Shown here in pieces: positions 5,024-46,005 of a DNA stretch of 64,000 nucleotides. The position numbers and the translations under genes were made by a program. The notes under the pieces were generated by a model. That model made no database searches, was not told where the DNA came from, and saw only the letters and a program-made list of their open reading frames with translations. Position 1 is the stretch's first letter. Each line of letters begins with the position of its first letter. The DNA comes from Thermoanaerobaculia bacterium. GTDB lineage: Bacteria; Acidobacteriota; Thermoanaerobaculia; Multivoradales; JAHEKO01. The DNA is taken from positions 8,055-72,054 of the forward strand of contig JBFGCA010000002.1 in NCBI GenBank assembly GCA_041567315.1. The letters are read 5' to 3'.

Positions 5024-5090
5024 TCGAGCTCTCCTTGCGGGTGGACCTCTACGCCCTACTAACGATGCGGCGCCGCCAGCCGTCTAGCCG

Positions 5091-6302: not shown

Positions 6303-6327
6303 CCCGCCTACGCTCCCACCGCGCCGC

Positions 6328-17615: not shown

Positions 17616-18488
17616 ATGCCCGCCGGCCTGGTGCGCTCGCTGCGGCCCCATCAGTGGGCCAAGAACCTGTTCGTGCTGGCACCGCTGGTCTTCGGCCGCC
17701 AGCTCGACGACGCCGGTGCCCTGACCCGGGCGGCGCTGGCCTTCGCCGCCTTCTGCGCCGCCTCCAGCGCCGTCTATCTGTTCAACGACATCCGCGATCG
17801 CGAGGAGGACCGGCGCCATCCCCACACGCGCCAGCGGCCGCTGGCCGCCGGCACGCTGAGCGTCGGCGTCGCGGCCGCCGCCATCGCCCTGCTGGTAGCC
17901 CTGGCCGCGGCCGGCGGCGCCGCGCTGGGACCGCTCTTCGCGCTGCTGCTGGGCAGCTATCTGCTGCTCAACCTGCTCTACACGCTGGGCCTCAAGCAGG
18001 TGGTGATCCTCGACGTCATGGTGATCAGCATGGGCTTCGTGCTGCGGGTAGTGGCGGGCGCCGTCGCCGCCGAGGTGGCGGTGTCGGCCTGGCTGGTGCT
18101 GTGCACTACGTTTCTGGCGCTGTTTCTGGCCTTCTCCAAGCGCCGCCACGAGCTGCAGGTCATGGCCGACGAAGCGGCCGAAGGCCGGCGGGTCTTGAGC
18201 CACTACAGTCAGTCGTTCCTGGACCAGATGATCAACGTGGTCACCGCCTCCACGGTGGTCAGCTACGCGGTCTACGCCATCTCCCCGGAAACGGTCGAGA
18301 AGTTCCACACCCGCAACCTGATCTACACCATGCCGCTGGTGCTGTTCGGCATCTTCCGCTATCTCTACCTGATCTACCAGCGACCCGCCGAGCGCAACCC
18401 CACCGAGGCGATCCTGCGCGACCTGCCCTTCCTCGCCAACCTCGGGCTGTGGGTGCTGGCGGTGCTGTGGATCGTCTACCGCGGATAG
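17616..18488 (+). CDS. UbiA-family prenyltransferase, decaprenyl-phosphate 5-phosphoribosyltransferase (Rv3806c/DPPR synthase)-like
   Basis: HQWAKNLFVLAPLVFG and YLFNDIRDREEDRRHPHTRQRPLAAG match the hallmark NDxxDxxxD region and N-terminus of Rv3806c-type DPPR synthases. 8-9 TM helices. ATG at 17616. Confidence 0.78.
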   Translation: MPAGLVRSLRPHQWAKNLFVLAPLVFGRQLDDAGALTRAALAFAAFCAASSAVYLFNDIRDREEDRRHPHTRQRPLAAGTLSVGVAAAAIALLVALAAAGGAALGPLFALLLGSYLLLNLLYTLGLKQVVILDVMVISMGFVLRVVAGAVAAEVAVSAWLVLCTTFLALFLAFSKRRHELQVMADEAAEGRRVLSHYSQSFLDQMINVVTASTVVSYAVYAISPETVEKFHTRNLIYTMPLVLFGIFRYLYLIYQRPAERNPTEAILRDLPFLANLGLWVLAVLWIVYRG

Positions 18489-18496
18489 CGGCGCCC

Positions 18497-19573
18497 GTGG
18501 CGGAAGAGTCGGCGGCCGGCGAGCGGGGACCCTGGCGGCGGCTGCCGGCGTGGCTCACCCGCCCGCCGGCGCCGGGCCGGGTGCGGCCGGGTCTCTACGC
18601 CTTCGAGATCGTCGCCTGGCTGGCGCTGGCGGCGGCGGTCGTCTTCCTGCGCTGGCAGGGGCTCAACGTCGACTGGGTCACCGTCGACTACACCATCCCG
18701 CCGCTGATCGCGCCGACGCTCAAGGCGCTGGCCAGCGGCGTGGTGCTGTACGCCGTCTACCACCTGCTGCGGCGGCGGCCGCCCGGCGACTACCTGCGGC
18801 AGGTCTTCTCGCTCCCGTGGCTGCTGCTCGGCGCGCGGCTGTGGCTGACCTGTCTGGTCTTCACCTACGCCTACTTCTGGCTCAAGGTCTCGGTGCCGCT
18901 GGTCAACTGGCGGCTCTGGGACCGCGAGCTGTGGCGGCTCGACGTGCTGCTCCACGCCGGCTTCTCGCCGACCGTCTTCCTGGTCGAGCTGCTGGCCGGC
19001 ACCGGGCTGCTGCCGCTGCTCGAGCTCTGGTACAGCTGGTGGCTGCCGTCGACGATGTTCGGGCTGGCCTTCTTCTGCGCCTACCCCGACGCCCGCACCC
19101 GGCGCCGCTTCATGTTGAGCACCGTGCTGCTGTGGACGCTGGGCGCCTGGCTCTACGTGGCGCTGCCGGCGCTGGGGCCGGCCTACGTCTACCCCGAGGA
19201 GTTCGCCGAGGTGCGTGAGGAGATGCCGCGCGCCGCCGGCGCCCAGTCGATGCTGATGGACAACTACCAGAAGGTGCTGGCCGGCCGCACCGGCCCGCTC
19301 AAGCGTTTCAACCCCACTCGCGGGATCGCCGCCCTGCCGAGCCTCCACGTCGGCGGGCACTGGCTGCTGCTGCTGTGGGTGCGGCGGCGGGCGCGGCCGC
19401 TCTACCTGCCGGCCGCGCTCGGCACCGCCCTGACCTTCGTCGGCTCGATCGTCACCGGCTGGCACTACGCGGTCGACGGCTACGCCGGCATCATCGTTGC
19501 ACTGGCCGCCTACTGGACGGCGCTTGCCGTCGACCGCCGGCTGGGCGGCGAGGCCGACGCAGTCGAAGACTAA
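18497..19573 (+). CDS. PAP2-superfamily membrane phosphatase (Rv3807c-like polyprenyl-phospho-sugar phosphatase candidate)
   Basis: GTG start at 18497, 9 nt after the UbiA stop. PAP2 motifs PSLHVGGHW and GWHYAVDGYAG. Multiple TM helices. Confidence 0.62.
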   Translation: MAEESAAGERGPWRRLPAWLTRPPAPGRVRPGLYAFEIVAWLALAAAVVFLRWQGLNVDWVTVDYTIPPLIAPTLKALASGVVLYAVYHLLRRRPPGDYLRQVFSLPWLLLGARLWLTCLVFTYAYFWLKVSVPLVNWRLWDRELWRLDVLLHAGFSPTVFLVELLAGTGLLPLLELWYSWWLPSTMFGLAFFCAYPDARTRRRFMLSTVLLWTLGAWLYVALPALGPAYVYPEEFAEVREEMPRAAGAQSMLMDNYQKVLAGRTGPLKRFNPTRGIAALPSLHVGGHWLLLLWVRRRARPLYLPAALGTALTFVGSIVTGWHYAVDGYAGIIVALAAYWTALAVDRRLGGEADAVED

Positions 19574-19574
19574 G

Positions 19575-21137
19575 ATGAGAGGCCATCCGATGCTCACCGC
19601 GCTGCGCTTCTACGCCGTCGTCGCCACCACCGGGGCGGTGATCATGGCGCTCGAGATCATCTCCAGCCGGGTGCTGGCGCCCAGCTTCGGCAACAGCGTC
19701 TACGTCTGGGGCTCGATCATCAGCGTCTTCCTGGCGGCGCTGTCGGTGGGCTACTACCTGGGCGGCCGGCTGGCCGACCGGCAGCCGCGGCTGGCCAACC
19801 TGGGGCGGTTGATCCTCGCCGGCGCGGTCTGCGAGGTGGTGCTGCTGTTCGCCGGCACCCGTCTGGCCGAGGTTTTCGGCGGCTGGACCGGCAGCTCGCC
19901 GGGCGGCACCCTGCTGGCGGCCACCGTGCTGTTCGGGCCGCCGAGCCTCTTCCTGGCCACCGTCTCGCCCTTCGCGGTGCGGCTGGCGGCGCGCGACCTC
20001 GCCCATCTCGGCAACACCGCCGGGCGGCTGTTCGCGCTCTCCACCGCCGGCAGCCTGGTGGGAACCCTGGGCTGCACCTTCCTGCTCATCCCCTACCTTC
20101 GCCTCCAGCAGACGCTGGGGCTGCTGCTGCTGGCCACGGTGCTGACCGGCTGCCTGGCGGTGGCCGGCGAGTGGCGCCGCGAGCTGGCGGCGCTCGGCCT
20201 GGCGGCGGCGCTGGCAGTGGCGGCGGTGACCGGGATGGTCTCGCGGCCGGCGCGGGCGGAGGGAGTGCTGTTCGTCAAGGTGACGCCCTACCAGACGCTC
20301 CACATCCGCGAGTCCGGCAGCCAGCGGTTCATGCTCGGCGACCGCACGCTCTACTCGGCGGTCGACATGGAGACCGGCGAGGCGACGCTGCCGGTGCTGC
20401 GCTACGCGCCGGCGGCGCTGCTGCTCAAGCAGGACATCGAGAGCCTCCTGGTCCTGGGAATGGGCGGTGGCAGCATCGGCAAGCACCTGCGGGCCGGGCT
20501 CGGCGAGATCGAGGTCGACTACGTGGACATCGATCCGGCGGTGGCCGAGCTGGCCGAGCGCTTCCTGGGCTTCGAGGCCGGCCCCGGCGAGCGGGTCCAC
20601 GTCGACGACGCCCGGCAGTTCCTGCGCCGCAGCCAGCGCCGGTGGGACTACATTTTCGGCGACGCCTACATCGGGCTGTCGGTGCCCTTCCACCTGACCA
20701 CCACCGAGTTCTTCGCCGAGGTCAAGCGCCGTCTCGAGCCCGGCGGCGTCTTCGGGCTCAACCTGGCGGGCGGGCTGGAGGACCCCTTCTCGCGGGCCAT
20801 CTTCCACACCGTCAGCGAGAGCTTCCTCACCACCTACGCCTTCGGCGTGCGCGGCGCCGCCAACGTGGTGCTGCTGGCCATCGACCAGAAGCTGACCCTG
20901 CCCAAGCAGCAGATGCTCCAGCGCGGCCAGGAGCTCGACCGGCGGTGGCGCTTCGACCCGACGCTGACCTTGATCGCCTCGAGCCGCCTCGACGTCACCC
21001 TCGACCCGGCCGAGGCGGTGCTGCTGACCGACGCCTTCGCCCCCGCCAGCCACCTCATCATGCTCGGCGCGGGCAGCGGGGAGCGCACCCTCGAGGAGCT
21101 GCTGGGCACCAGCGGCGCGCTCCCGGGAGGCGGCTGA
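19575..21137 (+). CDS. membrane-fused spermidine synthase-like aminopropyltransferase
   Basis: N-terminal about 230 aa with 7 TM helices fused to a SpeE-like SAM-dependent domain (LVLGMGGGSIGKHL, DYVDIDPAVAELAERFLGF, FGDAY). Start at ATG 19575, or ATG 19590 with an AGAGG RBS. Confidence 0.72.
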   Translation: MRGHPMLTALRFYAVVATTGAVIMALEIISSRVLAPSFGNSVYVWGSIISVFLAALSVGYYLGGRLADRQPRLANLGRLILAGAVCEVVLLFAGTRLAEVFGGWTGSSPGGTLLAATVLFGPPSLFLATVSPFAVRLAARDLAHLGNTAGRLFALSTAGSLVGTLGCTFLLIPYLRLQQTLGLLLLATVLTGCLAVAGEWRRELAALGLAAALAVAAVTGMVSRPARAEGVLFVKVTPYQTLHIRESGSQRFMLGDRTLYSAVDMETGEATLPVLRYAPAALLLKQDIESLLVLGMGGGSIGKHLRAGLGEIEVDYVDIDPAVAELAERFLGFEAGPGERVHVDDARQFLRRSQRRWDYIFGDAYIGLSVPFHLTTTEFFAEVKRRLEPGGVFGLNLAGGLEDPFSRAIFHTVSESFLTTYAFGVRGAANVVLLAIDQKLTLPKQQMLQRGQELDRRWRFDPTLTLIASSRLDVTLDPAEAVLLTDAFAPASHLIMLGAGSGERTLEELLGTSGALPGGG

Positions 21138-21153: not shown

Positions 21154-22335
21154 ATGCCGACCACGACCCGCGTCGCGCTCGCCCTGTTCGCCACCCTGAC
21201 CTGGACGTCGTCGCTGGCCGCCCGGACCGCGGAGGTCGCGGTCGAGCAGCCGGCCACGACTAGTGCCGGTGACACCAGCGCTGCCGAGACCGCGGCGGCC
21301 CCGCAGGAGCCGCCGCCCGGCGCCCGCTTCGAGGAGCGGGTGGAGGTCCGAGAGGTCCTGCTCGACGTCCTGGTCACCGACCGCCAGGGGCAGATCGTCG
21401 CCGGCCTCGACAAAGACGCCTTCGTGGTCGAGGAGGACGGCGAGGAGCGGGAGCTCACCGGGGCCCGGTTCTACAGCACCCGCTACGGCGAGCTGGGGAC
21501 CCCCGGCGCCGAGGAGGTGCCCGCCAGCCGCTACTTCATCTTCGTGTTCCACGACCAGCGGCTGGGGGTGACCTTCGCCGGCCGCATGGTCCGCCAGCAG
21601 CTCGACGCCGCCCGCCAGAGCCGCGCCTGGCTCGAAGACGGCATGCGGCCCTCGGACTGGGTGGCGGTGGCCAGCTACGACGTCAAGCTCAAGGTCCATC
21701 AGGACTTCACCCAGGACCGCGAGGCACTGGCGCGGGCCATGGACGACGCCGCGCGGAGCGTCCGGCCCGAGCCGCGGCGGCGCCGCGACCGCGAGGCGAT
21801 CCCGGTGGAGCTGCCCTCGCTGCTCCGCCATCTGCCCGACGATTTCGCGCTCCGCAAGCGGACGCCGCGGATGTACGAGGCCCTCCAGCTGCTGGCCGAG
21901 GCCAGCGGTCACATCGTGGGGCGCAAGAACCTGCTGCTGTTCTCGATCGGCTTCGGCGAGATCGACCGCGTCTCCGGCACCGTGCTCCCCGACCGCCGCT
22001 TCTACCCGCCGCTCGAGCGCGCCCTCAACGACAACAACGTGGCGGTCTACCCCATCGATCTCACCCCGACCGGCATCCGGCACCTGCAGAGCGACTTCCT
22101 CAACAAGCTGGCCTACGACACCGGCGGCGTCTACCACCGCAGCTTCGTGAGCTTCATCACCCCCCTGCGCGAGATCTCCGACGACACCAGCGGCTACTAC
22201 CTCCTCAGCTACCGCACCGAGCACCCGGCCGACGAAAGCGGCTTCCAGGAAGTCAAGGTCAAAGTGCAGCAGAAGGGGCTGCGGGTGCGGGCGCGCCGCG
22301 GCTACCTGTACGGGCCGGCGCCGGTGCGGCGCTGA
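21154..22335 (+). CDS. VWA domain protein (VWFA-related Acidobacterial domain family)
   Basis: Signal peptide MPTTTRVALALFATLTWTSSLAA. VWA-like fold (VLLDVLVTDRQGQ..., FIFVFHD, DWVAVASYDVKL) resembling the TIGR03436 architecture. Confidence 0.68.
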   Translation: MPTTTRVALALFATLTWTSSLAARTAEVAVEQPATTSAGDTSAAETAAAPQEPPPGARFEERVEVREVLLDVLVTDRQGQIVAGLDKDAFVVEEDGEERELTGARFYSTRYGELGTPGAEEVPASRYFIFVFHDQRLGVTFAGRMVRQQLDAARQSRAWLEDGMRPSDWVAVASYDVKLKVHQDFTQDREALARAMDDAARSVRPEPRRRRDREAIPVELPSLLRHLPDDFALRKRTPRMYEALQLLAEASGHIVGRKNLLLFSIGFGEIDRVSGTVLPDRRFYPPLERALNDNNVAVYPIDLTPTGIRHLQSDFLNKLAYDTGGVYHRSFVSFITPLREISDDTSGYYLLSYRTEHPADESGFQEVKVKVQQKGLRVRARRGYLYGPAPVRR

Positions 22336-22375
22336 CGGCGCTGAGGTCGGCGGTCCTTGCTGAAGGGTCGGTGGT

Positions 22376-22645
22376 GAGAGCCGACCGGGGCGGGGTGCGC
22401 CTGGGGACGCGGCGGGCCTGACGAACTCCAGAGGGGAGGCCCGCCGCTCCTTTCGCCTTCGCGCCAAACGGACCATAGCCTTCGGCGCTTGCCGCAAGCG
22501 CTCGTCTCAAGGCCACTGTCGAACCCCGCCCCGGCCGGCTCCTGCGCGGTCCGTGGCGACTGGCGCGCCAGGCAAGGGCGACCCCGCGGCCTCTCGACCC
22601 CAGGCGCGCACAGGGTGCGCAGCACTCTTACCTGATCTGCTTGCT
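22376..22645 (+). repeat. copy A of a ~280-350 bp dispersed non-coding repeat (second copy at 62141-62495)
   Basis: Shares with copy B a 5' module gagagccgRccggggcgggg..ggggacgcggcSggcctgacRgacttcagaggggaggccSgccgctcc and the block ccccRccccggccggctcctgcgcggtccgtg. Also shares a 3' cYcTctacctgatYctg module and a cgcaagcgc palindrome core. Confidence 0.8.
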
Positions 22646-22687
22646 CCTACTCCACGCTGCGGGCGGCCGGTGCATGCGACCAGGCTC

Positions 22688-24457
22688 TCATCGTCCGGTC
22701 AGCAGGCCGGTCACGAGGGCGGCTGAGAGGGCGGCGAGCATCCAAACGAGGCGGGCGCGTGGCGAGAGCGGGCGGGGGGCGATGGGGCCGAGGCGGCGGG
22801 CAAGGCCGGCGGCGAGGAGGGCGAGGAGGACGAGGGCGGCGGCGCCGAGGGCGGCGAGCCACCAGGCGTCGGGGGTGGCGAGGGCGCGCTGGAGGAGGAA
22901 GGAGTTCCTGGGCTCGAAGGAGAGGTAGGCGCGGGGGGGCCAGTGCGCCCAGTCCCAGGCCGCGGCCTGGAGGTAGCGGGCGCGGCCGTAGGTCTCGAGC
23001 AGCCGCAGGTGGAACTCGGTGAAGGGGACGAGGGTGCCGCTAACGGCGAGCAGGGCCGAGGCGGCGACGAGCGCGCGGCCGCCCCAGCGCCAGAGGGGCC
23101 GGGTGGGCGGCGTCTCGAAGAACGGGGCGCAGAGCAGGGCCAGGAGCGGCAGCGCCGGGACCAGGAAGCGCGGGCCCCAGCACCAGCCGCCGTGCCAGTC
23201 GCCCCAGCGGGCGTAGAGCAGGAGCAGGGCGGCCAGCGACCCCCAGGCGAGGAGGGTCGACGGCGGGTGCCGACGCCAGCCGGCGCGGGTGCAGGCGGCG
23301 GCCAGGAGCACGGTCGGGAAGTAGAGCAGCAGACCGCGGCCGGGGCTCGCCAGCAGACCGGCCAGGCCCTCGGTGAGCGGGCTGAACCAGCGGTCCATCT
23401 CGGCCTCGTAGCCGGTCCGCCAGGGACGGCCGAAGCGCGCCCAGTTGGACCAGCCGACCACCGCCAGCATGGCGAGCACCCCGGCGGCGAAGGCCAGGAT
23501 CGGCGGCAGCCCACGGCGCCCCGGCCACCGGCGGGCGACCGACCACAGGAGCACCGCGCCGCCGACCGGCAACAGGACGCCGTGCGCGATCTTGGCCAGG
23601 ACCGCGAGCCCCAGGGCGAGACCGGCCAGGAAGGCCGCCCACCGTGCAGGGCGGGAGACCGCACCCGGCGGGACATCCCCGGGCTGCGGCGCTACGGACT
23701 GCGGCGCGCCGGGCTGGGACGCGACCGGCTGGGTCCGGGCGGAGACGGCCTCGGCAGCGGCCTTCTCGCCGGCCGGCGTCCCAGCTGGCGTGTCGGTAGA
23801 CGGCCTGTCGGTCGACGGGGGCCGCCCGGTGGGGTCCGAATGCGGCGGAGTCGCCACCGCCCGCGCGGCGGCGAGCGCGAAGCCGACCAGCGCCAGGGCG
23901 GCCAGGGGCTCGGCGAAAAAGGTGCGGCCGTAGACCAGGAGCGGCGAGCCAAGCGTCGCCAGCAGCGCCACCGCGGCGGCGGTGCGGCGGCGGTACCCGA
24001 GCTCGAGCGCCAGCAGGAAGAGCAGCGCGCCGGTGGCCGCCACCACTACCGAGTTGGTCAGCGAGAGCGCGAAGAAGCCCCAGGCGTCGGCAGGCCGGTG
24101 CGGGTCGTACCACAGGAACTCCATGCCTTCGAAGACGGCCGTCGAGCGGGCCGGCGCCAGCGCCGCCAGCGCGCGGCCCAGCCACCAGAAGGGCACGCCG
24201 GCCAGCGACTGGCCGACGCCGTATTTGGCGTAGAGCCGGCCGTCGGGGCCGGGGAAGACGAAGCCCGGCGGCAGCCGCGGCTCGTCGACCCAGAGGCCGC
24301 CGTGCTCGGCCAGGGTCTGGGTCACCCGGCCCATCACCACCCCGTCGGGGCTGTGGACGAAGCCGCTGCCGGCGAGCGCCAGCGCCAGGGCGATGAGGGC
24401 GAAGAGCCAGACGGCGGGGCGGCCGCGCGCGGCGAGCGGTGGTCCGGAGGCGCTCAC
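22688..24457 (-). CDS. ArnT/PMT-like GT-C glycosyltransferase (GT39/GT83-like, polyprenyl-phosphate-sugar dependent)
   Basis: 589 aa with at least 11 TM helices. N-terminal loop VVMGRVTQTLAEHGGLWVDEP...YAKYGVGQSLAGVPFWWLG and ...GRTFFAEPLAALAL resemble ArnT/PMT_2 families. Start ATG 24457 overlaps the stop of the upstream GT-C (ATGA). Confidence 0.65.
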   Translation of the reverse strand: MSASGPPLAARGRPAVWLFALIALALALAGSGFVHSPDGVVMGRVTQTLAEHGGLWVDEPRLPPGFVFPGPDGRLYAKYGVGQSLAGVPFWWLGRALAALAPARSTAVFEGMEFLWYDPHRPADAWGFFALSLTNSVVVAATGALLFLLALELGYRRRTAAAVALLATLGSPLLVYGRTFFAEPLAALALVGFALAAARAVATPPHSDPTGRPPSTDRPSTDTPAGTPAGEKAAAEAVSARTQPVASQPGAPQSVAPQPGDVPPGAVSRPARWAAFLAGLALGLAVLAKIAHGVLLPVGGAVLLWSVARRWPGRRGLPPILAFAAGVLAMLAVVGWSNWARFGRPWRTGYEAEMDRWFSPLTEGLAGLLASPGRGLLLYFPTVLLAAACTRAGWRRHPPSTLLAWGSLAALLLLYARWGDWHGGWCWGPRFLVPALPLLALLCAPFFETPPTRPLWRWGGRALVAASALLAVSGTLVPFTEFHLRLLETYGRARYLQAAAWDWAHWPPRAYLSFEPRNSFLLQRALATPDAWWLAALGAAALVLLALLAAGLARRLGPIAPRPLSPRARLVWMLAALSAALVTGLLTGR

Positions 24458-26199
24458 CGCGGTAACGGTGGTCGCGGGACCTCGCCGCCCGGTCCCCCAG
24501 CTCCAGCCGTGCTGCCCCCGTCGCTGCCCGGCGCCGCCTCCGGGTCGGCCTCAGGGCCGGCCCCCATGCCGGCCTCCGGGTCCGCTGCTGGACCGGCCCC
24601 CGGGCCGGCCTCCGCCTCGACCCGGGCCAGCGGATGGCGGGTCCAGGGCGTGGCGAAGAGCACCAGCTCGTCGGCGCCCATGGTGACGTTGCGCGGGATC
24701 CGGAGCCCGTAGATTGGCCGGAAGCCGGTTCCCGGGCCGGTCAGCTCCGGGAACCACTCCGGGAAGATCACCAGGTAGTCGGGACGGCGTTCTTCGAGGA
24801 AACGGCGGACCCCGTCCTGCCAGGGGGCGCCGGCGGCGCGGGCGGCCCGGATGTAGCGCGGCACCTGCGGATCAACGATGCCGGCCAGGTCGAGCAGCCG
24901 GTTGGGCAGCAGGTACTGCAGGGCGCCGATGTCGTTGACCGCCAGGACCGCCTCCGGCGCCAGCCGCGGCGCCAGCCAGCGGGCCATGGCGACGTCGCTG
25001 TCGCGGACGTTGGCGACATTCTGAACATACCGCCCGGAGCCCTGCGCGAGGTGGACTATTGTCGGCAGCAGCACCAGGACGGCGGCGGCCGGCCGCCAGG
25101 CGAGCCGGCGGCGGCCGAGCCGCAGCCACGGCCCCACCGACTCCACCGCCCGCCCCGTCCCCAGCACGCCGAGCACCGCCACCACCGGCAGCAGGGGGAA
25201 GAAGTAGCGGCCGAAGTTGCCGGCCAGCAGGGCGCCGCCGGGTGGGTTGATCAACCCGTAGGCCAGCGGCAGGGCGGCCAGCCACAGCGCCGGCAGCAGC
25301 CCGGCGTCGCGGCGCCCGCCGAGGCGCTCGACGAGGGTGAGCGCCCCGGCGCCGGCCAGCAGCAGGGCCACCGGCTGCGGCCGGAAGAGGATCCCCAGCA
25401 CCGCGTAGAGGTAGCGGCCCTCGGGCAGCCAGCGGTGCACCCCCGAGGCCTTGGCCGCGAAGGTGGTCGGCAGCACCGAGCCGCTCACCGCCAGATGGAA
25501 GAGCGCCACCGGCAGCAGGACCACCGCCGCGCCCAGCAGCCCGGCGGCGAGCGCCCGGTCGGCCCGCAACCGCAGCGCCAGCCCGCCGGCGGGATGGCGC
25601 TCGAAGCGGAGTACCCGATCGGCCACCGCCAGCGCCAGCAGCAGCGCCCCTTCGGGGCGAGCCAGGGTGGCCAGGGCCAGCACCGGCAGCGCCAGCGGCG
25701 CCCGCCCCGGCCGGCGCCGCTCGCGCGCGTGGAGCCGCATCCCGACCAGGGTGAGGAGCACGAACAGCGGGATCTCGAGCCCCGACAGCGCGCCCCAGAC
25801 CAGCCAGCCGGTGGCCAGGGTCAGCCAGCCGGCGAGCCGGGCGAGGCCGCGCCCCGCCCCCAGCTCGGCGGCCAGGGCGCTGGCGGCGAGGCCGCCCCCG
25901 AGGTAGGCGACGGCGCCCAGCACCTTGACCCAGCCCACCGGGTTCCCCGGCAAAAGGAAGGCCAGAGCCAGCAGCGCGCTCCACAGCGGCGCCGTCGAGC
26001 CGGCTACCGGCTCGCCCCCCGGGGTGTAGGCGAGACCGCGGCCCGCCGCCAGGTTGCGCGCGAACTGGAGGTGGATCCAGCCGTCGTCCAAAGGGAAACC
26101 CGGGCCCTCGCCGAGGGCTCGCAGCTCGGCCGCCGTGTAGGCGGCGCAGGCGAGGACGCCGAACAGCAGCAGCACGAGCCGGGCCCGGCCCGGCGTCAT
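24454..26199 (-). CDS. ArnT/PMT-like GT-C glycosyltransferase, second paralog
   Basis: Start at ATG 26199 (MTPGRARLVLLLFGVLACAAYTAA). First periplasmic loop with acidic motif FPLDDGWIHLQFARNLAAGRGLAY typical of GT-C catalytic loops. At least 11 TM helices. Confidence 0.6.
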   Translation of the reverse strand: MTPGRARLVLLLFGVLACAAYTAAELRALGEGPGFPLDDGWIHLQFARNLAAGRGLAYTPGGEPVAGSTAPLWSALLALAFLLPGNPVGWVKVLGAVAYLGGGLAASALAAELGAGRGLARLAGWLTLATGWLVWGALSGLEIPLFVLLTLVGMRLHARERRRPGRAPLALPVLALATLARPEGALLLALAVADRVLRFERHPAGGLALRLRADRALAAGLLGAAVVLLPVALFHLAVSGSVLPTTFAAKASGVHRWLPEGRYLYAVLGILFRPQPVALLLAGAGALTLVERLGGRRDAGLLPALWLAALPLAYGLINPPGGALLAGNFGRYFFPLLPVVAVLGVLGTGRAVESVGPWLRLGRRRLAWRPAAAVLVLLPTIVHLAQGSGRYVQNVANVRDSDVAMARWLAPRLAPEAVLAVNDIGALQYLLPNRLLDLAGIVDPQVPRYIRAARAAGAPWQDGVRRFLEERRPDYLVIFPEWFPELTGPGTGFRPIYGLRIPRNVTMGADELVLFATPWTRHPLARVEAEAGPGAGPAADPEAGMGAGPEADPEAAPGSDGGSTAGAGGPGGEVPRPPLPR

Positions 26200-26300
26200 T
26201 CTCCAGCCGCTCCGGCGGCGGCAGTGGCCATGGGCAGCACCGCCGCCAGGTTTCCACAGGTCCGGGAGCGCCACAAGGCCGCTGCTAACATCCCGCGCCC

Positions 26301-27752
26301 ATGAAATCGCGGGGGACGAATCCGCCGGCCGAGAAGACGCCGCACGCGGCGGCCGCCCGCCGGCGGCGGGCTCGGCTCGGCCTCTACGGCGCCCTGGCGG
26401 CGGTGGTGCTCGGTCTGGCGCTCGCCGCCCGCTATCTCGACCGGCCCGAGGAGCCCCAGGAGGACCAGACCTGGTCGGACGTCGACTACGCGGCCCTGCC
26501 CGAGGTCCAGCTCCTCCAGCGCTACCTGCGCATCGACACCAGCCCGACCACGGGCAGCGAGCTGGAGGGCGCCCGTTTCCTGGCCGGAGTGCTCGAGGAG
26601 GCCGGCATTCCGGCCCACGTCGAGCGTCTCGGAGACCGGCAGGCCAACCTGTGGGCGGTGCTCGAAGGCGAGCTCCCGGAGGCGGTGGTCCTCCACCACC
26701 ACATCGACGTCTACCCGATCGACGACCCGGAGGCCTGGGACTTTCCGCCGTTCGGCGGGCAGATCGACCTCGCCTGGCTCTACGGCCGGGGCGCCTTCGA
26801 CATGAAGAGCGTCGCCATCGCCCAGCTCCAGGCGCTCCTCGAGCTCAAGCGCAGCGGCCAGCGGCCCCGGCGCTCGGTGATCTACCTGGCCACCGGCTCC
26901 GAGGAGGTCGGCAGCGAGCTGGGCACCCGCTGGATTCTTCGGCACCACCCCGAGCTGGTCGAGCGCTTCTGGGCGGTCCTCACCGAGGGCGGCATCGTCG
27001 AGCCGGTCAACCAGCGCGAGATCAAGTACTGGGGGATCGAATACAGCCAGAAACGCTTCGCCGTCGGCCACGCCTGCGCCACCGACCGCCAGCGGCTCGA
27101 GGAGCTGCGCGAGGACCTGATGGAGTGGGAGGCGACCGCCGCCCGGCGCCGGCTGACCCCCGAGGTGGACCGCTTCCTGACCGCCTACGCCGAGTCGCGC
27201 CGCGACGTGGACATCCGCGAGGTCCTCGCCGAGACCCGGCGCGCCCTCGACCACACGGCCGATTTCGAGGCGCTGCCCGGCTACCTGAAGTCGATGTTCC
27301 GCGACGAGCTGGTGGCCTACCCGGTCGAGGAGGACCGCGACGGCGGCTTCCGGATGCGGCTGGTCTTCCATCTGTTGCCGGGGAGCGATTTCGCCGACGT
27401 CCGTCCGCGGCTGCTACCGCCCTGGCTGACCCACGGCGTCGCGGTCCGGCTCGAGGAGCCGCTGGGCAGCCCGGCGGCCAGTCCGGTGGACCACCCGGCC
27501 TACCGGGCCCAGGAGGAGCTGCTGCGCGAGGCCTATCCGGAGGCCAGGGTGGGGCCCTACTTCCTGGCCTGGGTGGCCACCGACTCGCGCTTCTTTCGCG
27601 AGGCCGGGATCCCCTCCTACGGCTTCTCCCCGTTCCTCATCTTCAACACCGACACCTTCCGGGTGGACACCATCAACGAACGCATCGGGCTGCCCGGATA
27701 CGTCGGTGGCGTCGAGCTGTACGGCCGGCTGCTGAGGCGTCTCGCCGGCTGA
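26301..27752 (+). CDS. M20 family metallopeptidase (membrane-anchored), paralog 1
   Basis: N-terminal TM LGLYGALAAVVLGLALAA. LQRYLRIDTS...HHIDVYP...GRGAFDMKSVAIAQL...YLATGSEEVGS motifs of M20/M28 peptidases (ArgE/DapE/CPG2-like). Confidence 0.8.
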   Translation: MKSRGTNPPAEKTPHAAAARRRRARLGLYGALAAVVLGLALAARYLDRPEEPQEDQTWSDVDYAALPEVQLLQRYLRIDTSPTTGSELEGARFLAGVLEEAGIPAHVERLGDRQANLWAVLEGELPEAVVLHHHIDVYPIDDPEAWDFPPFGGQIDLAWLYGRGAFDMKSVAIAQLQALLELKRSGQRPRRSVIYLATGSEEVGSELGTRWILRHHPELVERFWAVLTEGGIVEPVNQREIKYWGIEYSQKRFAVGHACATDRQRLEELREDLMEWEATAARRRLTPEVDRFLTAYAESRRDVDIREVLAETRRALDHTADFEALPGYLKSMFRDELVAYPVEEDRDGGFRMRLVFHLLPGSDFADVRPRLLPPWLTHGVAVRLEEPLGSPAASPVDHPAYRAQEELLREAYPEARVGPYFLAWVATDSRFFREAGIPSYGFSPFLIFNTDTFRVDTINERIGLPGYVGGVELYGRLLRRLAG

Positions 27753-27862
27753 CCCCGGCCGGCCGGCAGCCCGCTGACACTGCCCGGCAGGGGGGCCTGT
27801 CAGTTTTTGTCGCGGGCGGCGCCCGAGGGCCGCTGCCACAAGGGTTCCGGCGGCACCGGAGC

Positions 27863-27878
27863 TGGCACGTAACCTGCT
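27863..27878 (+). promoter_or_regulatory. sigma-54 (-24/-12) promoter candidate upstream of pilA
   Basis: cTGGCACGtaacCTGCT has GG and GC at the correct 11-nt spacing, about 95 nt upstream of the pilA ATG. A nearby tandem TGTC-containing stretch (27796-27814) may be an activator site. Confidence 0.55.
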
Positions 27879-27972
27879 GCTCTGACCGGCTGCCAGGAGC
27901 ACGAACGATTCTTGGACCACGGGATTGCCAGGAAAACAGTCACACCAACCAACGCGAGGAGGTAGCACAGTA

Positions 27973-28515
27973 ATGATGAAGCTCAACAGACGCCGGGGTC
28001 AGCGGGGTTTCACCCTGATCGAGCTGCTGATCGTGGTGGCGATCATCGGAATCATCGCCGCCATTCTGATCCCCAACCTTCTGGATGCCCTCCAGAAGGC
28101 CAAGCAGAAGCGGACCGTCGGCGACGAGCGCAACGTCGGCTCGGCCTGGTTCTCGTGGCTCACCGACCAGATCGGAGCGGCCGCCGCCGGCACCACCAAC
28201 ACCTACGACTTCAGCGCCCTGACCGCCATCGCCGCCGGTGACCTGCTGACCACGTTGTACCGAGACGAAGAGATGTTCTACATCCAGGAGATCCCGGTCA
28301 ACGACGGCTGGGGCAACGGCTACGAGTACGCCTGGTCGGGCAACGTGCTGACGGCGCAGGTCATGGGCATCCGCAGCGCCGGTCGGAGCACCGACGGCAG
28401 CTTCGCGGGCAACTCCTACACCATGGGGCCGTTCATCGCCACCGACTACGACCAGGACATCGTCTGGGCGGACGGCTTCTTCGTCACCTACCCGGCCGGC
28501 GTCAACGTCCAGTAG
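27973..28515 (+). CDS. pilA: type IV major pilin PilA (class III signal peptide, N-methylation motif)
   Basis: AGGAGG RBS 10 nt upstream. MMKLNRRRGQRGFTLIELLIVVAIIGIIAAILIPNLL is a canonical prepilin leader with the G/FTLIE cleavage site and Glu+5. About 180 aa. Confidence 0.9.
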   Translation: MMKLNRRRGQRGFTLIELLIVVAIIGIIAAILIPNLLDALQKAKQKRTVGDERNVGSAWFSWLTDQIGAAAAGTTNTYDFSALTAIAAGDLLTTLYRDEEMFYIQEIPVNDGWGNGYEYAWSGNVLTAQVMGIRSAGRSTDGSFAGNSYTMGPFIATDYDQDIVWADGFFVTYPAGVNVQ

Positions 28516-28538
28516 CGCCCGCCAAGGGCCCAACCGAG

Positions 28539-28580
28539 AGAGGCGCCGCCCGCCGCGGCGCCTCTTTCCCTTTTCTGGCC
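28539..28580 (+). terminator. Rho-independent terminator downstream of pilA
   Basis: Perfect 11-bp GC-rich stem AGAGGCGCCGC/GCGGCGCCTCT with a 5-nt loop, followed by TTCCCTTTTCT. Confidence 0.8.
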
Positions 28581-28632
28581 TTTTCTGGAGCCCCCCTCTC
28601 CGGACCGGCCGCCCGGATAGACTCGCCGCCCC

Positions 28633-30009
28633 GTGATTCCACGCCCCGCCGCCGGCCTGCTGCCCGCCGGCCTGCTACTGGTCTCGCTGCTGGCGGCGGC
28701 GCCGGCCGCGGCGAGCGGCGCCCTCGGACAGGAGGCCGCCTGGCTGCAGCGCTACCTGCGGCTCGACACCTCCAATCCACCGGGCGACGAGGCGCGGGCG
28801 GCGCGCTTCCTGGCCGAGCTGCTGCACCGCGAAGGGCTGACCACCCGGCGGGCGGTCTCGCCCGGCGGCCGCACCAGCCTGTGGGCGCGGCTCGAGTCCG
28901 GCCGGCCCGAGGCCGGCGCGCTGCTGCTCCAGCACCACATCGACGTGGTCCCGCCGGGGCCGGGGTGGAGCACCGATCCCTTTGCCGGCGAGGTGCGGGA
29001 CGGCGTGCTCTGGGGTCGTGGCGCGATCGACGCCAAGAGCCTGGGAATCGCCCATCTGGCCGCCCTGGTCGAGCTGCGCCGGCGCCGGGTCCCGCTGGCC
29101 CGCGACGTCGTCTTCCTGGCGGTGGCCGACGAGGAGACCGGCGGCCGCGAGGGTACCGCCTGGCTGCTGGAGGCGCACCCCGAGCTGTTCGCGGGGGTCG
29201 CGGCGGTGCTCGGCGAGGGCGGTCTCAACCGCTCCTATCAGGGGCGCCTGGCCTGGTGGGGAATCGAGACCGCCCAGAAGCGCCCGCTGTGGCTGCGCGT
29301 CATCGCCGCCGGCCGCGGCGGCCACGGCTCGACCCTCAACCTCCACGCCGCCCCTCACCGCCTGGTGCGCGGTCTGGGCCGGCTGGTCGACCGGCCGCTC
29401 GACTACCGCGTGACCCCCGAGGTGCGACGCTACATGGAGGCCGCCGCCCCCCACGAGACCGCCCACTTCCAGCGGCTGGTGGCGAACCTCGACGAGGTGG
29501 TCACCGGACCGGAGCCCGAGCGCCACCTGCTGCCGGGCATGCCCAACTACTTCCTCGACACCATCCAGGTCAACGTGCTGGCGGCGGGCGAGAAGCTCAA
29601 CGTGGTCCCCGAGGAGGCGGTCGCCGAGATCGACGTGCGGCTGCTTCCCGACACCGACCAGCAGGCCTTTCTGGAAGAGATCCGCCAACTGCTCGGCGAC
29701 GAGGTGGAGGTGGAGGTGCTGCTCGACGCTCCGCCGGTGACCGCCTCGCCGCTCGACAACCCGATCTGGCGCTGTCTCGAGACCACCCTCGGCCCGCGCG
29801 CAGCAGTGGTCCCGGCCTTCATCCCGGGGATCACCGACGCCCGCTACTTCCGGGGCCGCGGGCTGGCGGCCTACGGGTTCTCGCCCTTCGTCCTCGCCGC
29901 CGCCGAGCTCAAGGGCATCCACGGGCCCGACGAGCGCATCCCGCTGGCGGCGTTCGAGCAGGGCGTGGCGCTGATGAAGACGCTGGTGCGGGCATGCGCC
30001 GGCGGCTAG
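28633..30009 (+). CDS. M20 family metallopeptidase (secreted), paralog 2
   Basis: Signal peptide MIPRPAAGLLPAGLLLVSLLAAAPAAASGA. LQRYLRLDTSNPPGDE, HHIDVVP, GRGAIDAKS, VADEETGG motifs. Paralogous to 26301-27752. Confidence 0.8.
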   Translation: MIPRPAAGLLPAGLLLVSLLAAAPAAASGALGQEAAWLQRYLRLDTSNPPGDEARAARFLAELLHREGLTTRRAVSPGGRTSLWARLESGRPEAGALLLQHHIDVVPPGPGWSTDPFAGEVRDGVLWGRGAIDAKSLGIAHLAALVELRRRRVPLARDVVFLAVADEETGGREGTAWLLEAHPELFAGVAAVLGEGGLNRSYQGRLAWWGIETAQKRPLWLRVIAAGRGGHGSTLNLHAAPHRLVRGLGRLVDRPLDYRVTPEVRRYMEAAAPHETAHFQRLVANLDEVVTGPEPERHLLPGMPNYFLDTIQVNVLAAGEKLNVVPEEAVAEIDVRLLPDTDQQAFLEEIRQLLGDEVEVEVLLDAPPVTASPLDNPIWRCLETTLGPRAAVVPAFIPGITDARYFRGRGLAAYGFSPFVLAAAELKGIHGPDERIPLAAFEQGVALMKTLVRACAGG

Positions 30010-32402: not shown

Positions 32403-32405
32403 GAG

Positions 32406-33179
32406 ATGCAGGTTGATCCACTGCTCGCCCTCTACGCCCTGCTGGTGGGCCTGGTGGTGGGCAGCTACCTCAACGTCCTGATCCACCGGCTGCCGCGCGG
32501 GGTCTCGACCGTCCGGCCGCGCTCGCGCTGCCCGTACTGCGACGGCCCGATCGGCGCCCGCGACAACGTGCCGCTGGCCAGCTTCCTGCTGCTCAGGGGC
32601 CGCTGCCGGCGCTGCGGCGCCCCCATAGCCTGGCGCTACCCGCTGGTCGAGGCGCTCACCGGCGCGCTGTTCGCGGCCTGCGTGGTGCGCTTCGGCGCCA
32701 GCCTGGAGGCGCTGACGGCGGCGGTCTTCGCGGCGCTCATGGTGCTGCTGGCGATGATCGACCTCGAGCACTTCCTGCTGCCCGACCGGGTGACCCTGCC
32801 GGGGATCTTCCTCGGGCTCGCTCTGCAGCCGTGGCGGCCGGGGGTCGGCTGGCTGGAAGCGGTGGTCGGGGCGCTGGCCGGCGCCGGTCTGCTGGTGCTG
32901 CTGATGAACCTCTGGTACTGGCTGCGCGGGGAGGAGGGCATGGGGATGGGTGACGTCAACATGATGGCGCTGATCGGCGCCTTCCTGGGCTGGAAGGCGG
33001 CCCTGGTGGCGCTGCTGGGGGCGGCCCTCAGCGGCGCGCTGCTGGGGATCGTCCTGCTGCTCGCCGGCCGCGTCGGCTGGCGCTCGCGGCTGCCGTTCGG
33101 GGTCTTCCTGGCCGGCGGCGGCCTGCTGGCGCTGTTCGCCGGCGAGCGGCTGCTGGCGCTCTACGGACGCCTGCCCTGA
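32406..33179 (+). CDS. pilD: prepilin peptidase / N-methyltransferase PilD (A24 family)
   Basis: Cys-box CPYCDGPIG...CRRCG, catalytic-Asp regions (LAMIDLEHFLLPD; GMGMGDVNMMALIGAFLGW), 8 TM helices. Confidence 0.9.
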   Translation: MQVDPLLALYALLVGLVVGSYLNVLIHRLPRGVSTVRPRSRCPYCDGPIGARDNVPLASFLLLRGRCRRCGAPIAWRYPLVEALTGALFAACVVRFGASLEALTAAVFAALMVLLAMIDLEHFLLPDRVTLPGIFLGLALQPWRPGVGWLEAVVGALAGAGLLVLLMNLWYWLRGEEGMGMGDVNMMALIGAFLGWKAALVALLGAALSGALLGIVLLLAGRVGWRSRLPFGVFLAGGGLLALFAGERLLALYGRLP

Positions 33180-33210
33180 GAGGCCGGTCCCACCCTTCGA
33201 GGCGCCGGGC

Positions 33211-34980
33211 GTGAAGCTCCCCCGATTCAGCCTCCCCCGGTTCGGCCCTCTGGGCCTGCGGCGCGAGCTGCTGATCCTGCTGCCGGTGGCGGTCCTGGTG
33301 CTGGTCCTCGCCTCCACCTTCACGCTGCTGGCCTACCGCTCGGCCCTCCAGCTGCTGACCGAGGAGCGCCAGCTCGAGGCCGCCGAGCTGGCGCGGCGGC
33401 TGGCCGAACAGCTGCCCGACGACGCCCGGCCGACCGCCGCCGAGCTGCGCCGGCTGGCGCCCACTGCCCGGCAGGTGGTGCTGACCGACGCCCGGGGGCG
33501 GCCGCTGCCCGGCAGCGGGCCGGCGGTCGACCCCGACCCGCTGGCGCCGCTGGGCGGCCGGCGGCCGGCGGCCGCGGTCGCCGTCGGTCCCGGGCCGGCG
33601 CTCGCCGGCGCGGTGGCCGGGTTTGCGCCCCTGGCCGGCGGCCGGGGCTATCTGCGGGTCGACCTGGGGGCCGCCCAGCTCGGCCGTCAGCTGCGCGGCC
33701 TGCGGGTCCTCTTCTGGGTGGTGCTCGGCGTCAACGGCGGTCTGACCCTGCTGCTGCTGTGGTTCCTGGGCCGCCTGCTCGGTCCCTGGGAGGAGCTGCT
33801 GGCCGCCGCCCGCCGCAGCGGTCAGCCCGACGCCGGCGAGGACGAGGTCGCCTTCCTGATCTCCTCGGTGCGCCGGGCCCTGGCGGACCATGGCCGGACC
33901 GCTGGAGCCGGGCCGGGCGAGGACGACATCGCGGTGCTGCAAAGGGCGCTGGGCTCGAGCCTCGAAAGCGGGCTGCTGCTGCTCGACCGCCAGGGGCGGG
34001 TGCTGGCCCTCAACCGGCTGGGCGCCGAGTGGCTGGGGGTGGCGGCGCCCGCCGAGCCCGATCGGCGCCAGGAGCCGGCGCCGGTCGAGCGGCTGCTGGC
34101 CGCCCAGCCCGAGCTCAGCGCCCTCTTGCGGCGGGCGGTCCGGCAGGGCCGCGGCGTCCGGCGGCAGGAGGTGACGGTCCGCCACCCCGCGGGCGAGCTC
34201 ACCCTCGGGCTCTCGGTCCACGCCCTGACCCGCGACGACGGCGCGGTGCGGGGCTTCCTGATGCTCTTCGCCGACCTCACCGAGAGCCGGCGCCAGGCCG
34301 AGGAGAAACGGCTGGCCAGCAGCCTCGACCAGCTCGGCGAGCTGGCGGCCGGGGTCGCCCACGAGCTGCGTAACAGTCTGGCCACCCTGCGCGGCTATCT
34401 GACGCTGATCGAGCGCCGGCCCGAGGAGGAGCCGATCACCGAGTACCTGGCCGAGATCCGCCGCGAGAGCGCCCATCTCGAGCGGGTGCTGGAGGATTTC
34501 CTGGCCTTCGCACGGCCGGGAACGGCGCGTCTGGAGGTAGTCGACCTGGCCACCGCCGTCCGGCGGGCGGCGGGCGATCCCAGCCTGCGCGGCCGGGCGG
34601 TCGACCTGCGGCTCGACCCGGCCGCCCGCTACCGCATCCGCGGCGACCGCCAGTTGCTGGAGCGGGCGCTGCGCAACCTGCTCCACAACGCCGCCGAGGC
34701 GCAGGACCAGACCGCCGCCGAGGAGCCCCTGGAGGCCGCCGTCGAGCGGGTGGGCGGCGAGCTCCAGGTGTCGGTCGCCGACCGCGGAGACGGCGTCTCC
34801 GCCGAGGTCCGGCGCCGGCTCTTCCAGCCGTTCGTCACCGGCCGGCCCGGCGGCGTCGGGCTCGGTCTGTCGCTGGCCCACCGGATCGTCACCCTCCACG
34901 GCGGACGGCTCCGGCTCGAGGACCGGCCGGCGGGCGGCACCCGGGCGGTCATCACCTTCCCCGCTGACAGAATCGTGTAG
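33211..34980 (+). CDS. sensor histidine kinase (PilS-like candidate)
   Basis: GTG start. Two TM helices flanking a periplasmic domain. HisKA H-box GVAHELRNSLATLRGYL and HATPase_c N/G boxes (LLHNAAEA, DRGDGV, GGVGLGLSL). Confidence 0.85.
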   Translation: MKLPRFSLPRFGPLGLRRELLILLPVAVLVLVLASTFTLLAYRSALQLLTEERQLEAAELARRLAEQLPDDARPTAAELRRLAPTARQVVLTDARGRPLPGSGPAVDPDPLAPLGGRRPAAAVAVGPGPALAGAVAGFAPLAGGRGYLRVDLGAAQLGRQLRGLRVLFWVVLGVNGGLTLLLLWFLGRLLGPWEELLAAARRSGQPDAGEDEVAFLISSVRRALADHGRTAGAGPGEDDIAVLQRALGSSLESGLLLLDRQGRVLALNRLGAEWLGVAAPAEPDRRQEPAPVERLLAAQPELSALLRRAVRQGRGVRRQEVTVRHPAGELTLGLSVHALTRDDGAVRGFLMLFADLTESRRQAEEKRLASSLDQLGELAAGVAHELRNSLATLRGYLTLIERRPEEEPITEYLAEIRRESAHLERVLEDFLAFARPGTARLEVVDLATAVRRAAGDPSLRGRAVDLRLDPAARYRIRGDRQLLERALRNLLHNAAEAQDQTAAEEPLEAAVERVGGELQVSVADRGDGVSAEVRRRLFQPFVTGRPGGVGLGLSLAHRIVTLHGGRLRLEDRPAGGTRAVITFPADRIV

Positions 34981-35087: not shown

Positions 35088-35102
35088 TGGCACCCGCTTT
35101 GC
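35088..35102 (+). promoter_or_regulatory. sigma-54 (-24/-12) promoter candidate upstream of the minor-pilin operon
   Basis: TGGCACccgctTTGCT is a near-consensus match (TGGCAC-N5-TTGCW), about 60 nt upstream of the first minor pilin gene. Confidence 0.6.
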
Positions 35103-35825: not shown

Positions 35826-35848
35826 CGCCGGGAAGGAGCGAAACAGCG

Positions 35849-36430: not shown

Positions 36431-36443
36431 GGAAGCGCCGCCG

Positions 36444-38320: not shown

Positions 38321-38367
38321 GTCCCGCCGGCGCCGTCCCTCCCCGCGCGGCCTCCAAGGAGTCGAAG

Positions 38368-44636: not shown

Positions 44637-45956
<1,320 letters not shown>

Positions 45957-46005
45957 CCTACCGCCCGACCTCCGCTCGTATAATCGCCCTTCGGAGCGGC
46001 GCGGC

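Follow-up and report, generated by a model that had tools for sequence, protein, structure and literature searches.

Genes A and B are two overlapping genes on the minus strand of a 64,000-nucleotide (nt) stretch of contig JBFGCA010000002.1, from a Thermoanaerobaculia bacterium (assembly GCA_041567315.1). The whole stretch, called the window below, has a G+C content of ~74%. The two genes form an operon which, with high confidence, encodes two different inner-membrane glycosyltransferases of the GT-C(A) fold. Throughout a whole class of Acidobacteriota, gene A is the conserved partner of a type IV pilin block. The locus may be a pilin-linked GT-C system, possibly dependent on a pentofuranose, in which a remote relative of the mycobacterial enzyme AftB is accompanied by a lineage-specific accessory GT-C. 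The explanation that we favour, at close to but below even confidence, is that A and B glycosylate a periplasmic acceptor, most likely the major pilin, using a lipid-linked sugar. We infer both the donor and the acceptor from sequence and genomic context.

Gene A, its relatives and its neighbours

A and B are real genes, since the G+C content at the third codon position (GC3) is of coding type (0.93 for A and 0.94 for B), identical products of 581 and 589 amino acids (aa) were called independently on the NCBI metagenome-assembled genome (MAG) contig and on two Logan contigs, and many homologs exist for both. The best homologs of all the products examined came from MAGs of Thermoanaerobaculia, Holophagales and 'Multivoradales', all of them Acidobacteriota. 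The two open reading frames (ORFs) proposed in a first-pass annotation of this DNA were present as drawn (Table 1). Their translational coupling on one strand and their divergence from a block of M20 peptidase, pilin and M20 peptidase genes were likewise borne out, and the gap of about 100 bp expected between A and this block measured 101 bp. The overlap had been given as ATGA but reads GTGA, 4 bp in which the TGA stop of A lies over the GTG start of B; these boundaries match the NCBI call. If A instead started with the GTG at 26274, the gap would be only 26 bp; the gene calls take the ATG.

In the product of A a transmembrane (TM) core makes up residues 1 to ~390; it is followed by an alpha/beta domain in the periplasm (~395-525), and residues 531-581 form a low-complexity tail, which is disordered. 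Its multi-pass core with juxtamembrane helices superimposed on solved GT-C enzymes, and a conserved catalytic Asp was found at the start of the first periplasmic loop, at the tip of juxtamembrane helix 1 (JM1), as is characteristic of the GT-C(A) fold. The catalytic loop, PLDDGWIHLQFARNLAAG, bears D38 and D39. The motif DDGWIHLQF, picked out in the first-pass annotation, held up well: D38, D39, W41, I42, H43, L44, Q45 and F46 were invariant across 42 homologs, and D38 and D39 were invariant in a further 60 distant homologs. A gave no Pfam or NCBIfam match (none in NCBIfam at E <= 1) and a phmmer search of the PDB returned no GT-C match for either A or B. Residues 531-581 of A (24454-24609) and 203-268 of B (~23654-23851) are Pro/Ala/Gly/Glu-rich low-complexity insertions which are missing from homologs and are predicted to be disordered in structural models.

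AftB was the sole PDB match of the A profile (full-sequence E = 0.97, domain i-E = 0.041). It is the terminal beta-1,2 arabinofuranosyltransferase of the Rv3805c family in Mycobacteriales (PDB 9dlf/9dlh). The top Foldseek match of A was also AftB, in its donor-bound form (E = 2.8e-7, 18% identity over 528 columns). A profile of the AftB family was prepared by rebuilding residues 59-317 from the printed alignment and then collecting and aligning relatives; hhalign of the A family against it gave 93.8% (E = 1.8e-7, 229 columns) and indicated no relationship for B (2.8%). A and AftB both carry the DD motif at the tip of JM1, and the segments RNL-AG-G, G-ST-W, SG(L/M)E, RPE and P-T-AK align. In AftB, D62 of the DD motif is catalytic and the donor analogue is contacted by T91, E172, R221, T274 and R372 (PMC12041299). 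In the alignment D62 corresponds to D39 of A, T91 to T69, E172 to E142, R221 to R181 and T274 to T246. All five of these residues of A are invariant in the 42 homologs and they are largely retained in relatives at 25-37% identity. R372 falls outside the alignment and the invariant R331 of A is a candidate equivalent only. The JGI label 'arabinofuranosyltransferase' is common to several homologs of A and to homologs of AftB.

A also differs from AftB. Identity is only ~16-18% and detection was borderline in both the PDB profile search and hhalign. A is shorter and seems to hold the counterpart of only the first lobe of the AftB periplasmic domain. It is found in a Gram-negative acidobacterium without arabinogalactan or lipoarabinomannan, its genomic partner is the pilin block, and DprE1 and DprE2 were not found nearby. 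Since A scored about equally against B by hhalign, the sequence comparison points to a remote relationship with AftB and not to clear membership of the AftB/GT89-like arabinofuranosyltransferases.

The neighbourhood of A was compared among relatives obtained by a scan of one genome per species, which gave 326 genomes, and the best 80 were studied; these best 80 of 326 all came from the same acidobacterial classes. Counts were made by tblastn and ORF clustering on the related loci (L numbers below). Of the 77 species-level loci with enough upstream sequence, 76 had an M20 gene as the divergent neighbour of A, and a pilin gene lay at most 3 kb from A in 58 of 62 loci, so that the link to the pilin locus noted in the first-pass annotation is strongly conserved for A. 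The block upstream of A runs M20, pilin (1-3 copies), M20, an optional pilin or YfhO-like gene, PilD, a PAS histidine kinase and the minor pilins. The downstream flank of A is variable, unlike the M20-pilin side.

Gene B and the comparison with TfpW

The product of B is all membrane, has no soluble periplasmic domain and contains a disordered Pro/Ala/Thr-rich loop at residues 203-268. Compared with solved GT-C enzymes it scored 23.2 against ArnT, 22.3 against ALG12 and 19.2 against AglB. In both A and B, basic N-terminal residues precede TM1 and TM1 precedes the catalytic Asp; the position of the Asp after TM1 is shared with ArnT (GT83) and PMT/PMT_2 (GT39-type) enzymes, which use polyprenyl-monophosphate sugar donors. 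B differs from these enzymes in lacking a soluble periplasmic domain and in scoring above threshold with none of their sequence models: PMT in Pfam gave E = 0.046, the other library match, LA_3751/LA_3752 'putative glycosyltransferase', was also below threshold, and the B profile reached E = 7e-4 with Pmt1. The motif GLWVDEP (residues 54-60), cited in the first-pass annotation as an ArnT/PMT-like acidic motif of the first loop, proved to be variable; D58 is Asp in 12 of 45 homologs and position 59, Glu in the window, is Asp in 11 of 45. The invariant acidic residue is instead D38 in HSPDG, directly after TM1 (45/45 homologs).

The first-pass annotation took A and B for paralogs arising by tandem duplication. 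BLASTP aligned them only through low-complexity sequence (E = 0.13). By hhalign, residues 90-418 of A and 130-511 of B aligned at 92.7% (E = 4e-7), a match which covers the membrane cores only and leaves the catalytic loop outside. B was found behind A in the window organism only (L001-L003); none of the other species examined has it there, not even the two closest relatives, in which A is 62-63% identical to the window protein. The 91 homologs of B have a patchy distribution across phyla and lie in non-pilus contexts, beside another PMT_2 gene or beside genes for a polyprenyl synthase, an MFS transporter or PIG-L. Tandem duplication is therefore the wrong description, because BLAST similarity is lacking, B accompanies A in the window organism only and B has non-pilus contexts of its own. 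The alignments place the kinship of A and B at the superfamily level rather than in recent paralogy, and B is best described from these comparisons as a separate GT-C gene, a lineage-specific addition that landed in the slot behind A. That slot is occupied by a DegT aminotransferase gene in many relatives. The absence of BLASTP similarity and of a shared phyletic pattern rules out recent paralogy; the true paralogs of this region are the 802-aa and 878-aa YfhO-like proteins (35% identity over 364 aa, BLASTP E = 7e-16).

The first-pass annotation also likened the locus to that of TfpW, the D-arabinofuranose (D-Araf) glycosyltransferase/oligosaccharyltransferase of P. aeruginosa group IV pilins (TfpW preprint, TfpY paper). 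tfpW lies immediately downstream of pilA on the same transcript, the order being pilA-tfpW-tfpX on one strand, and TfpX is a small accessory protein with 3 TM helices which is not a GT-C (TfpW preprint, TfpY paper). The TfpW protein is described with 11 TM helices, the motifs DDx and YX6PFX7P, the second of these in periplasmic loop 4, and a periplasmic TPR domain at its C-terminus; its pathway relies on DPPR synthase together with DprE1 and DprE2 (TfpW preprint, TfpY paper). A resembles TfpW in being a GT-C genetically linked to a type IV pilin gene and in having DDx, which is essential in TfpW, in periplasmic loop 1. TfpW draws on a DPPR-synthase-based pathway to a lipid-linked pentofuranose, and A has a DPPR synthase gene nearby. 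B shares none of the listed features of TfpW. Unlike tfpW, A and B are on the opposite strand to the pilin gene, an M20 gene intervenes, and the pilin gene has its own predicted promoter and terminator. No TPR domain was matched by Pfam in A or B, the C-terminal domain of A being alpha/beta, and a regular-expression search of A and B for YX6PFX7P, the proline motif of TfpW and Emb, was negative.

The tandem GT-C arrangement which had been ascribed to tfpW is not real at that locus, where one GT-C is accompanied by the small TfpX. The analogy with TfpW stands at the functional level, where the nearby DPPR synthase and PAP2 phosphatase genes give it some substance, and fails for the family features and the gene order. 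The locus may thus work like the TfpW system but, by the described features of TfpW, outside the TfpW family. That A and B are tandemly duplicated paralogs of a TfpW-type pilin glycosyltransferase is extremely improbable: they are both GT-C proteins, and the DDx of A and the DPPR synthase gene are as such a reading would have it, but A and B show no BLASTP similarity, B is unique to the window organism with a separate history, the TPR domain and YX6PFX7P are missing, the genes are not downstream of pilA and TfpW loci have a single GT-C with TfpX. The domain architecture of TfpW, GT-C plus TPR, was seen in some relatives, where PMT_2 proteins with a C-terminal TPR region (609-739 aa) are encoded a few kb downstream of A (L004, at 18759-20588, L031, L048 and L054; also L041, L050, L053, L075 and L076); the window has no such gene. 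Wzy_C, characteristic of PglL- and TfpO-type enzymes, did not match A or B at E <= 10. The literature searched gave no account of glycosylated pili in Thermoanaerobaculia.

Donor, acceptor and alternative explanations

A DPPR synthase gene and a PAP2 phosphatase gene lie 5-7 kb away. The former matched NF008977, an NCBIfam equivalog-level model, well above its cut-off and is Rv3806c-like. The latter is a candidate polyprenyl-P-ribose-5-P phosphatase, by analogy with Rv3807c. The pairing of Rv3806c with Rv3807c is cited in the TfpW paper and the order UbiA-PAP2 in the window reproduces it; mycobacterial arabinan genes likewise adjoin Rv3806c and Rv3807c, a further point of likeness between AftB and A. 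A PAP2 gene also follows UbiA in L012, L014 and L026, and 18 related loci have UbiA no more than 10 kb from A. The PAP2_3 gene was hidden in a mixed-frame ORF of 1350 aa (15521-19573) and would be missed by simple ORF filters; over most of its frame (18550-19300) the third codon position is 0.97-0.99 GC. Searches by tblastn for DprE1 (query checked against the PDB) and DprE2 (a provisional query) found neither in the window nor in 89 loci comprising 1.46 Mb of related flanks. Because DprE1 and DprE2 were not found near the locus, two lipid-linked sugars are conceivable, ribofuranose or, given an epimerase gene elsewhere in the genome, arabinofuranose. No flippase was identified, and no GtrA-like flippase was identified in the window.

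These observations suggest the following scheme. The DPPR synthase and the PAP2 phosphatase would make a polyprenyl-P-pentofuranose in the cytoplasm, which would then be flipped to the periplasm. The catalytic Asp of each enzyme (D39 in A, D38 in B) lies on the periplasmic side just after TM1. A and B would each draw one sugar from a polyprenyl-monophosphate carrier, in the case of A probably a pentofuranose. A, then B and perhaps the YfhO-like enzymes would add single sugars successively to a periplasmic acceptor. This role would most likely fall to the major type IV pilin, whose gene is 1.7 kb distant, before the pilin is assembled. The locus would then be a functional analogue of TfpW-type pilin arabinosylation built on an AftB-like enzyme. 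A pentofuranosyl-phosphopolyprenol as donor is a tentative proposal. The pilin as acceptor is plausible, being drawn from linkage, and we hold it a shade more loosely still; it is the most economical acceptor because of the invariant linkage between A and the pilin block. The presence of a second GT-C, YfhO-like, inside the pilin block also counts towards the pilin link, and a YfhO-like gene occupies this position in 39 related loci. A lipid-linked donor is also favoured by distant relatives in the A family, which share operons with GT2 polyprenyl-P-sugar synthases, GtrA, Wzx and other GT-Cs.

Several observations weigh against the scheme. The association of A and B with the pilin is one of gene linkage and could be synteny inherited within one class. 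An M20 gene separates A from the pilin gene, the two are on opposite strands, and the pilin gene has its own sigma-54-like promoter and terminator. UbiA is paired more tightly with a YfhO-like gene than with A, most related loci with UbiA carrying a UbiA(-)/YfhO-like(+) pair, and the failure to find DprE1 and DprE2 belongs here too. As regards AftB, A is by hhalign equally far from B (92.7%) and from AftB (93.8%), the pattern of Asp, Glu and basic residues shared with AftB is in part common to GT-C(A) enzymes in general (E183 and K289 of B fall at the same positions), and the natural acceptor of AftB is a polysaccharide, not a protein. Lastly, 24 of 72 relatives have A coupled instead to a DegT aminotransferase, suggestive of an amino-sugar pathway.

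This last point bears on the main rival explanation, namely that A (and B) modify an envelope glycolipid, the lipid A or core of lipopolysaccharide (LPS), as ArnT does, the adjacency to the pilin being a conserved gene order without a functional link. We regard it as rather unlikely. In the 24 loci the DegT/DnrJ/EryC1 gene stands immediately behind A, mostly with a 4-bp overlap, at the position taken by B in the window (L005, L009, L012, L014, L016, L019, L025, L047, L049, L065, L072, L080, L082, L091 and others), and a DegT gene is found within 10 kb of A in 38 loci. ArnB is a member of the DegT-family aminotransferases. GT2 and LPG_synthase_TM genes in the variable flank, the ArnT-like fold of B and the name 'Ara4N transferase-like' given by JGI to two homologs of A all accord with a glycolipid acceptor, as do the Kdo transferase and lipid A acyltransferase genes which lie beyond the UbiA/YfhO-like pair in the window, GT9 and LpxK being there in L005. 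However, neither A nor B scored above threshold with the ArnT, PMT or PMT_2 models, and in ORF scans of the window genes resembling arnA, arnC or arnD were missing, as were DegT, GT2 and formyltransferase genes, so that the first-pass annotation's own alternative, ArnT proper, was not upheld. The one invariant neighbour of A is moreover the M20-pilin side, the LPS side being split off by variable insertions. Were LPS the acceptor, the finding would reduce to an ordinary envelope-modification operon.

The variable flank of A carries other genes in relatives: a fused MFS/spermidine-synthase gene, DUF362, sulfatase-like genes, the GT-C-plus-TPR genes noted above, or a UbiA/YfhO-like pair followed by biotin carboxylase. 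The MFS/spermidine-synthase-like gene is near A in at least 19 related loci, and in 7 of these it is immediately downstream and convergent on A. Its product could be a candidate transporter or flippase.

A third explanation, to which we give a low probability, is that A and B elaborate a secreted or surface polysaccharide, or glycosylate periplasmic proteins generally, with the YfhO-like GT-Cs as an assembly line like those of mycobacterial arabinan or of teichoic-acid glycosylation. The window has four GT-C-like genes in ~18 kb, the termini of arabinan are where AftB acts (PMC12041299), and the homologs of B neighbour genes for a polyprenyl synthase, MFS or PIG-L or a further PMT_2 gene. Distant members of the A family, furthermore, are found in clusters free of pilus genes. 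In one such locus, YfhO, A-like and PMT genes follow one another with 4-bp overlaps throughout, together with Wzx and GT2/GtrA; in another, GT2 and an A-like gene adjoin LytR_cpsA_psr. Against this explanation, no genes for polysaccharide export or polymerisation (Wzx, Wzy, Wza or ABC type) turned up when the ORFs surrounding A and B were scanned with Pfam, and throughout Thermoanaerobaculia A keeps its place at the pilin block. The window locus shares the general logic of GtrA/GtrB/GT-C and YfhO systems, in which a lipid-P-sugar made in the cytoplasm is flipped and its sugar is transferred by a GT-C outside the cytoplasm; operons of the GtrA/GtrB type house distant members of the A family and the window carries YfhO-like paralogs. 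Unlike those systems, the candidate donor synthase of the window is a UbiA-type phosphoribosyltransferase and not a GT2. The PMT gene following the distant A-like gene in L092 was tried as an ortholog of B and was rejected, the comparison showing no similarity; the recurring order of an A-like then a PMT-like gene is therefore not orthologous.

If pilin glycosylation by A is correct, pilin pentofuranosylation would extend from a few Pseudomonadota with TfpW to a class of soil and sediment Acidobacteriota, by a different enzyme lineage akin to a mycobacterial cell-wall enzyme from a group of drug targets. The A profile matched 22,754 clusters (50% identity) at E <= 1e-3 and Pfam coverage of this family is scant; a first functional anchor for the family would therefore assist the annotation of many genes. 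A more far-reaching version, which we put forward as a long shot, is a class-wide and so far undescribed system of pilin glycosylation in Thermoanaerobaculia and related Acidobacteriota. In it an AftB-like GT-C, not of TfpW, PglL or TfpO type, would move a pentofuranose directly to pilin, maybe ribofuranose from polyprenyl-phospho-ribose without DprE1 and DprE2, with the conserved M20 pair and the YfhO-like GT-Cs taking part as well. The AftB lineage would thereby gain its first protein-directed member, and the DPPR pathway its first use for pili outside Pseudomonadota.

The pilin block and regulatory elements

The coordinates of the genes and elements are collected in Table 1.

Table 1. Genes and predicted elements of the window; positions are numbered from its first nucleotide.
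Feature	Position	Strand	Details
YfhO/DUF2079-like GT-C membrane protein, ~878 aa	14909-17545	-	DUF2079 9e-4, below threshold; divergent from DPPR synthase gene
UbiA-family decaprenyl-phosphate phosphoribosyltransferase (DPPR synthase, Rv3806c-like)	17544-18488	+	NF008977 307 bits, cut-off 234; Pfam UbiA 6.5e-28
PAP2_3 phosphatase	18497-19573	+	Pfam PAP2_3 7e-24, above cut-off; start uncertain (18497 or 18581)
Fused MFS/spermidine-synthase-like membrane protein	19590-21137	+	NCBIfam NF037959, 5e-63
Gene B: all-membrane GT-C glycosyltransferase, ArnT/PMT-like fold	22688-24457	-	589 aa, GTG start
A/B overlap GTGA	24454-24457	-	TGA stop of A over GTG start of B
Gene A: AftB-like GT-C glycosyltransferase	24454-26199	-	581 aa, ATG start
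Divergent intergenic gap, A and first M20 gene	26200-26300		101 bp
M20 metallopeptidase/deacylase, membrane-anchored	26301-27752	+	Pfam Peptidase_M20 1.3e-22; basic tail then TM segment at N-terminus
Terminator-like hairpin	27786-27801		after first M20 gene
Sigma-54-like -24/-12 element TGGCACGTAACCTGC	27863-27877	+	~95 nt before pilin start
Major type IV pilin, GspG-like globular part	27973-28515	+	N_methyl 3.4e-10; TIGR01710 3.5e-13
Strong terminator, 14-bp GC-rich hairpin	28536-28568	+	just past pilin stop
Second M20 peptidase, signal peptide	28633-30009	+	Pfam Peptidase_M20 1e-31, M20_dimer; signal peptide from N-terminal sequence
YfhO-like GT-C membrane protein, 802 aa	29994-32402	+	Pfam YfhO 4e-5, below threshold; between second M20 and pilD
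Exact sigma-54 consensus match TGGCACCCGCTTTGC	35088-35102	+	gap between PAS histidine kinase (end 34980) and first minor-pilin-cluster gene (start ~35166)
PilR-type sigma-54 activator	44637-46115	-	

The pilin gene is probably a highly expressed transcription unit of its own, given the predicted sigma-54-type element before it and the hairpin terminator behind it. Conservation of Ser and Thr across 106 pilins revealed no clear glycosylation site. In nearly all of the 80 related species the pilin gene is sandwiched between two M20 genes, often with extra pilin copies. Periplasmic M20 enzymes beside a pilin are not accounted for by any known pilus function, and the sandwich could mark a new step in pilin maturation.

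The first-pass annotation envisaged a shared promoter region in the gap between A and the first M20 gene. A scan of 22300-28700 for sigma-70 promoters found nothing. A strong AT-rich bipartite motif, GAT(G/C)ATAAAC-N13-15-TTGTGTATGCTT, was present in this gap 10-15 nt before the ATG of A in ~30 of 76 loci (L006, L030, L039-L041, L044, L046-L050, L052, L053, L055, L058, L060-L067, L071, L075, L076 and L085). It has the look of promoter elements placed back to back, the leader being very short or absent. The window has a degenerate, closer-spaced remnant at ~26265-26295. Because only this degenerate version is present in the window, no regulatory conclusion is drawn for its gap.

The type IV pilus genes of the window, which amount to most of a pilus system, are spread around LPS and fatty-acid genes at 3380-6359 (minus strand), 32403-34980 (plus strand) and 35166-42552 (plus strand). 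They encode a PilB-like ATPase, a PilC-like platform protein, PilD, a PilS-like kinase, PilW-like minor pilins and a 1601-aa protein at the position of PilY1.

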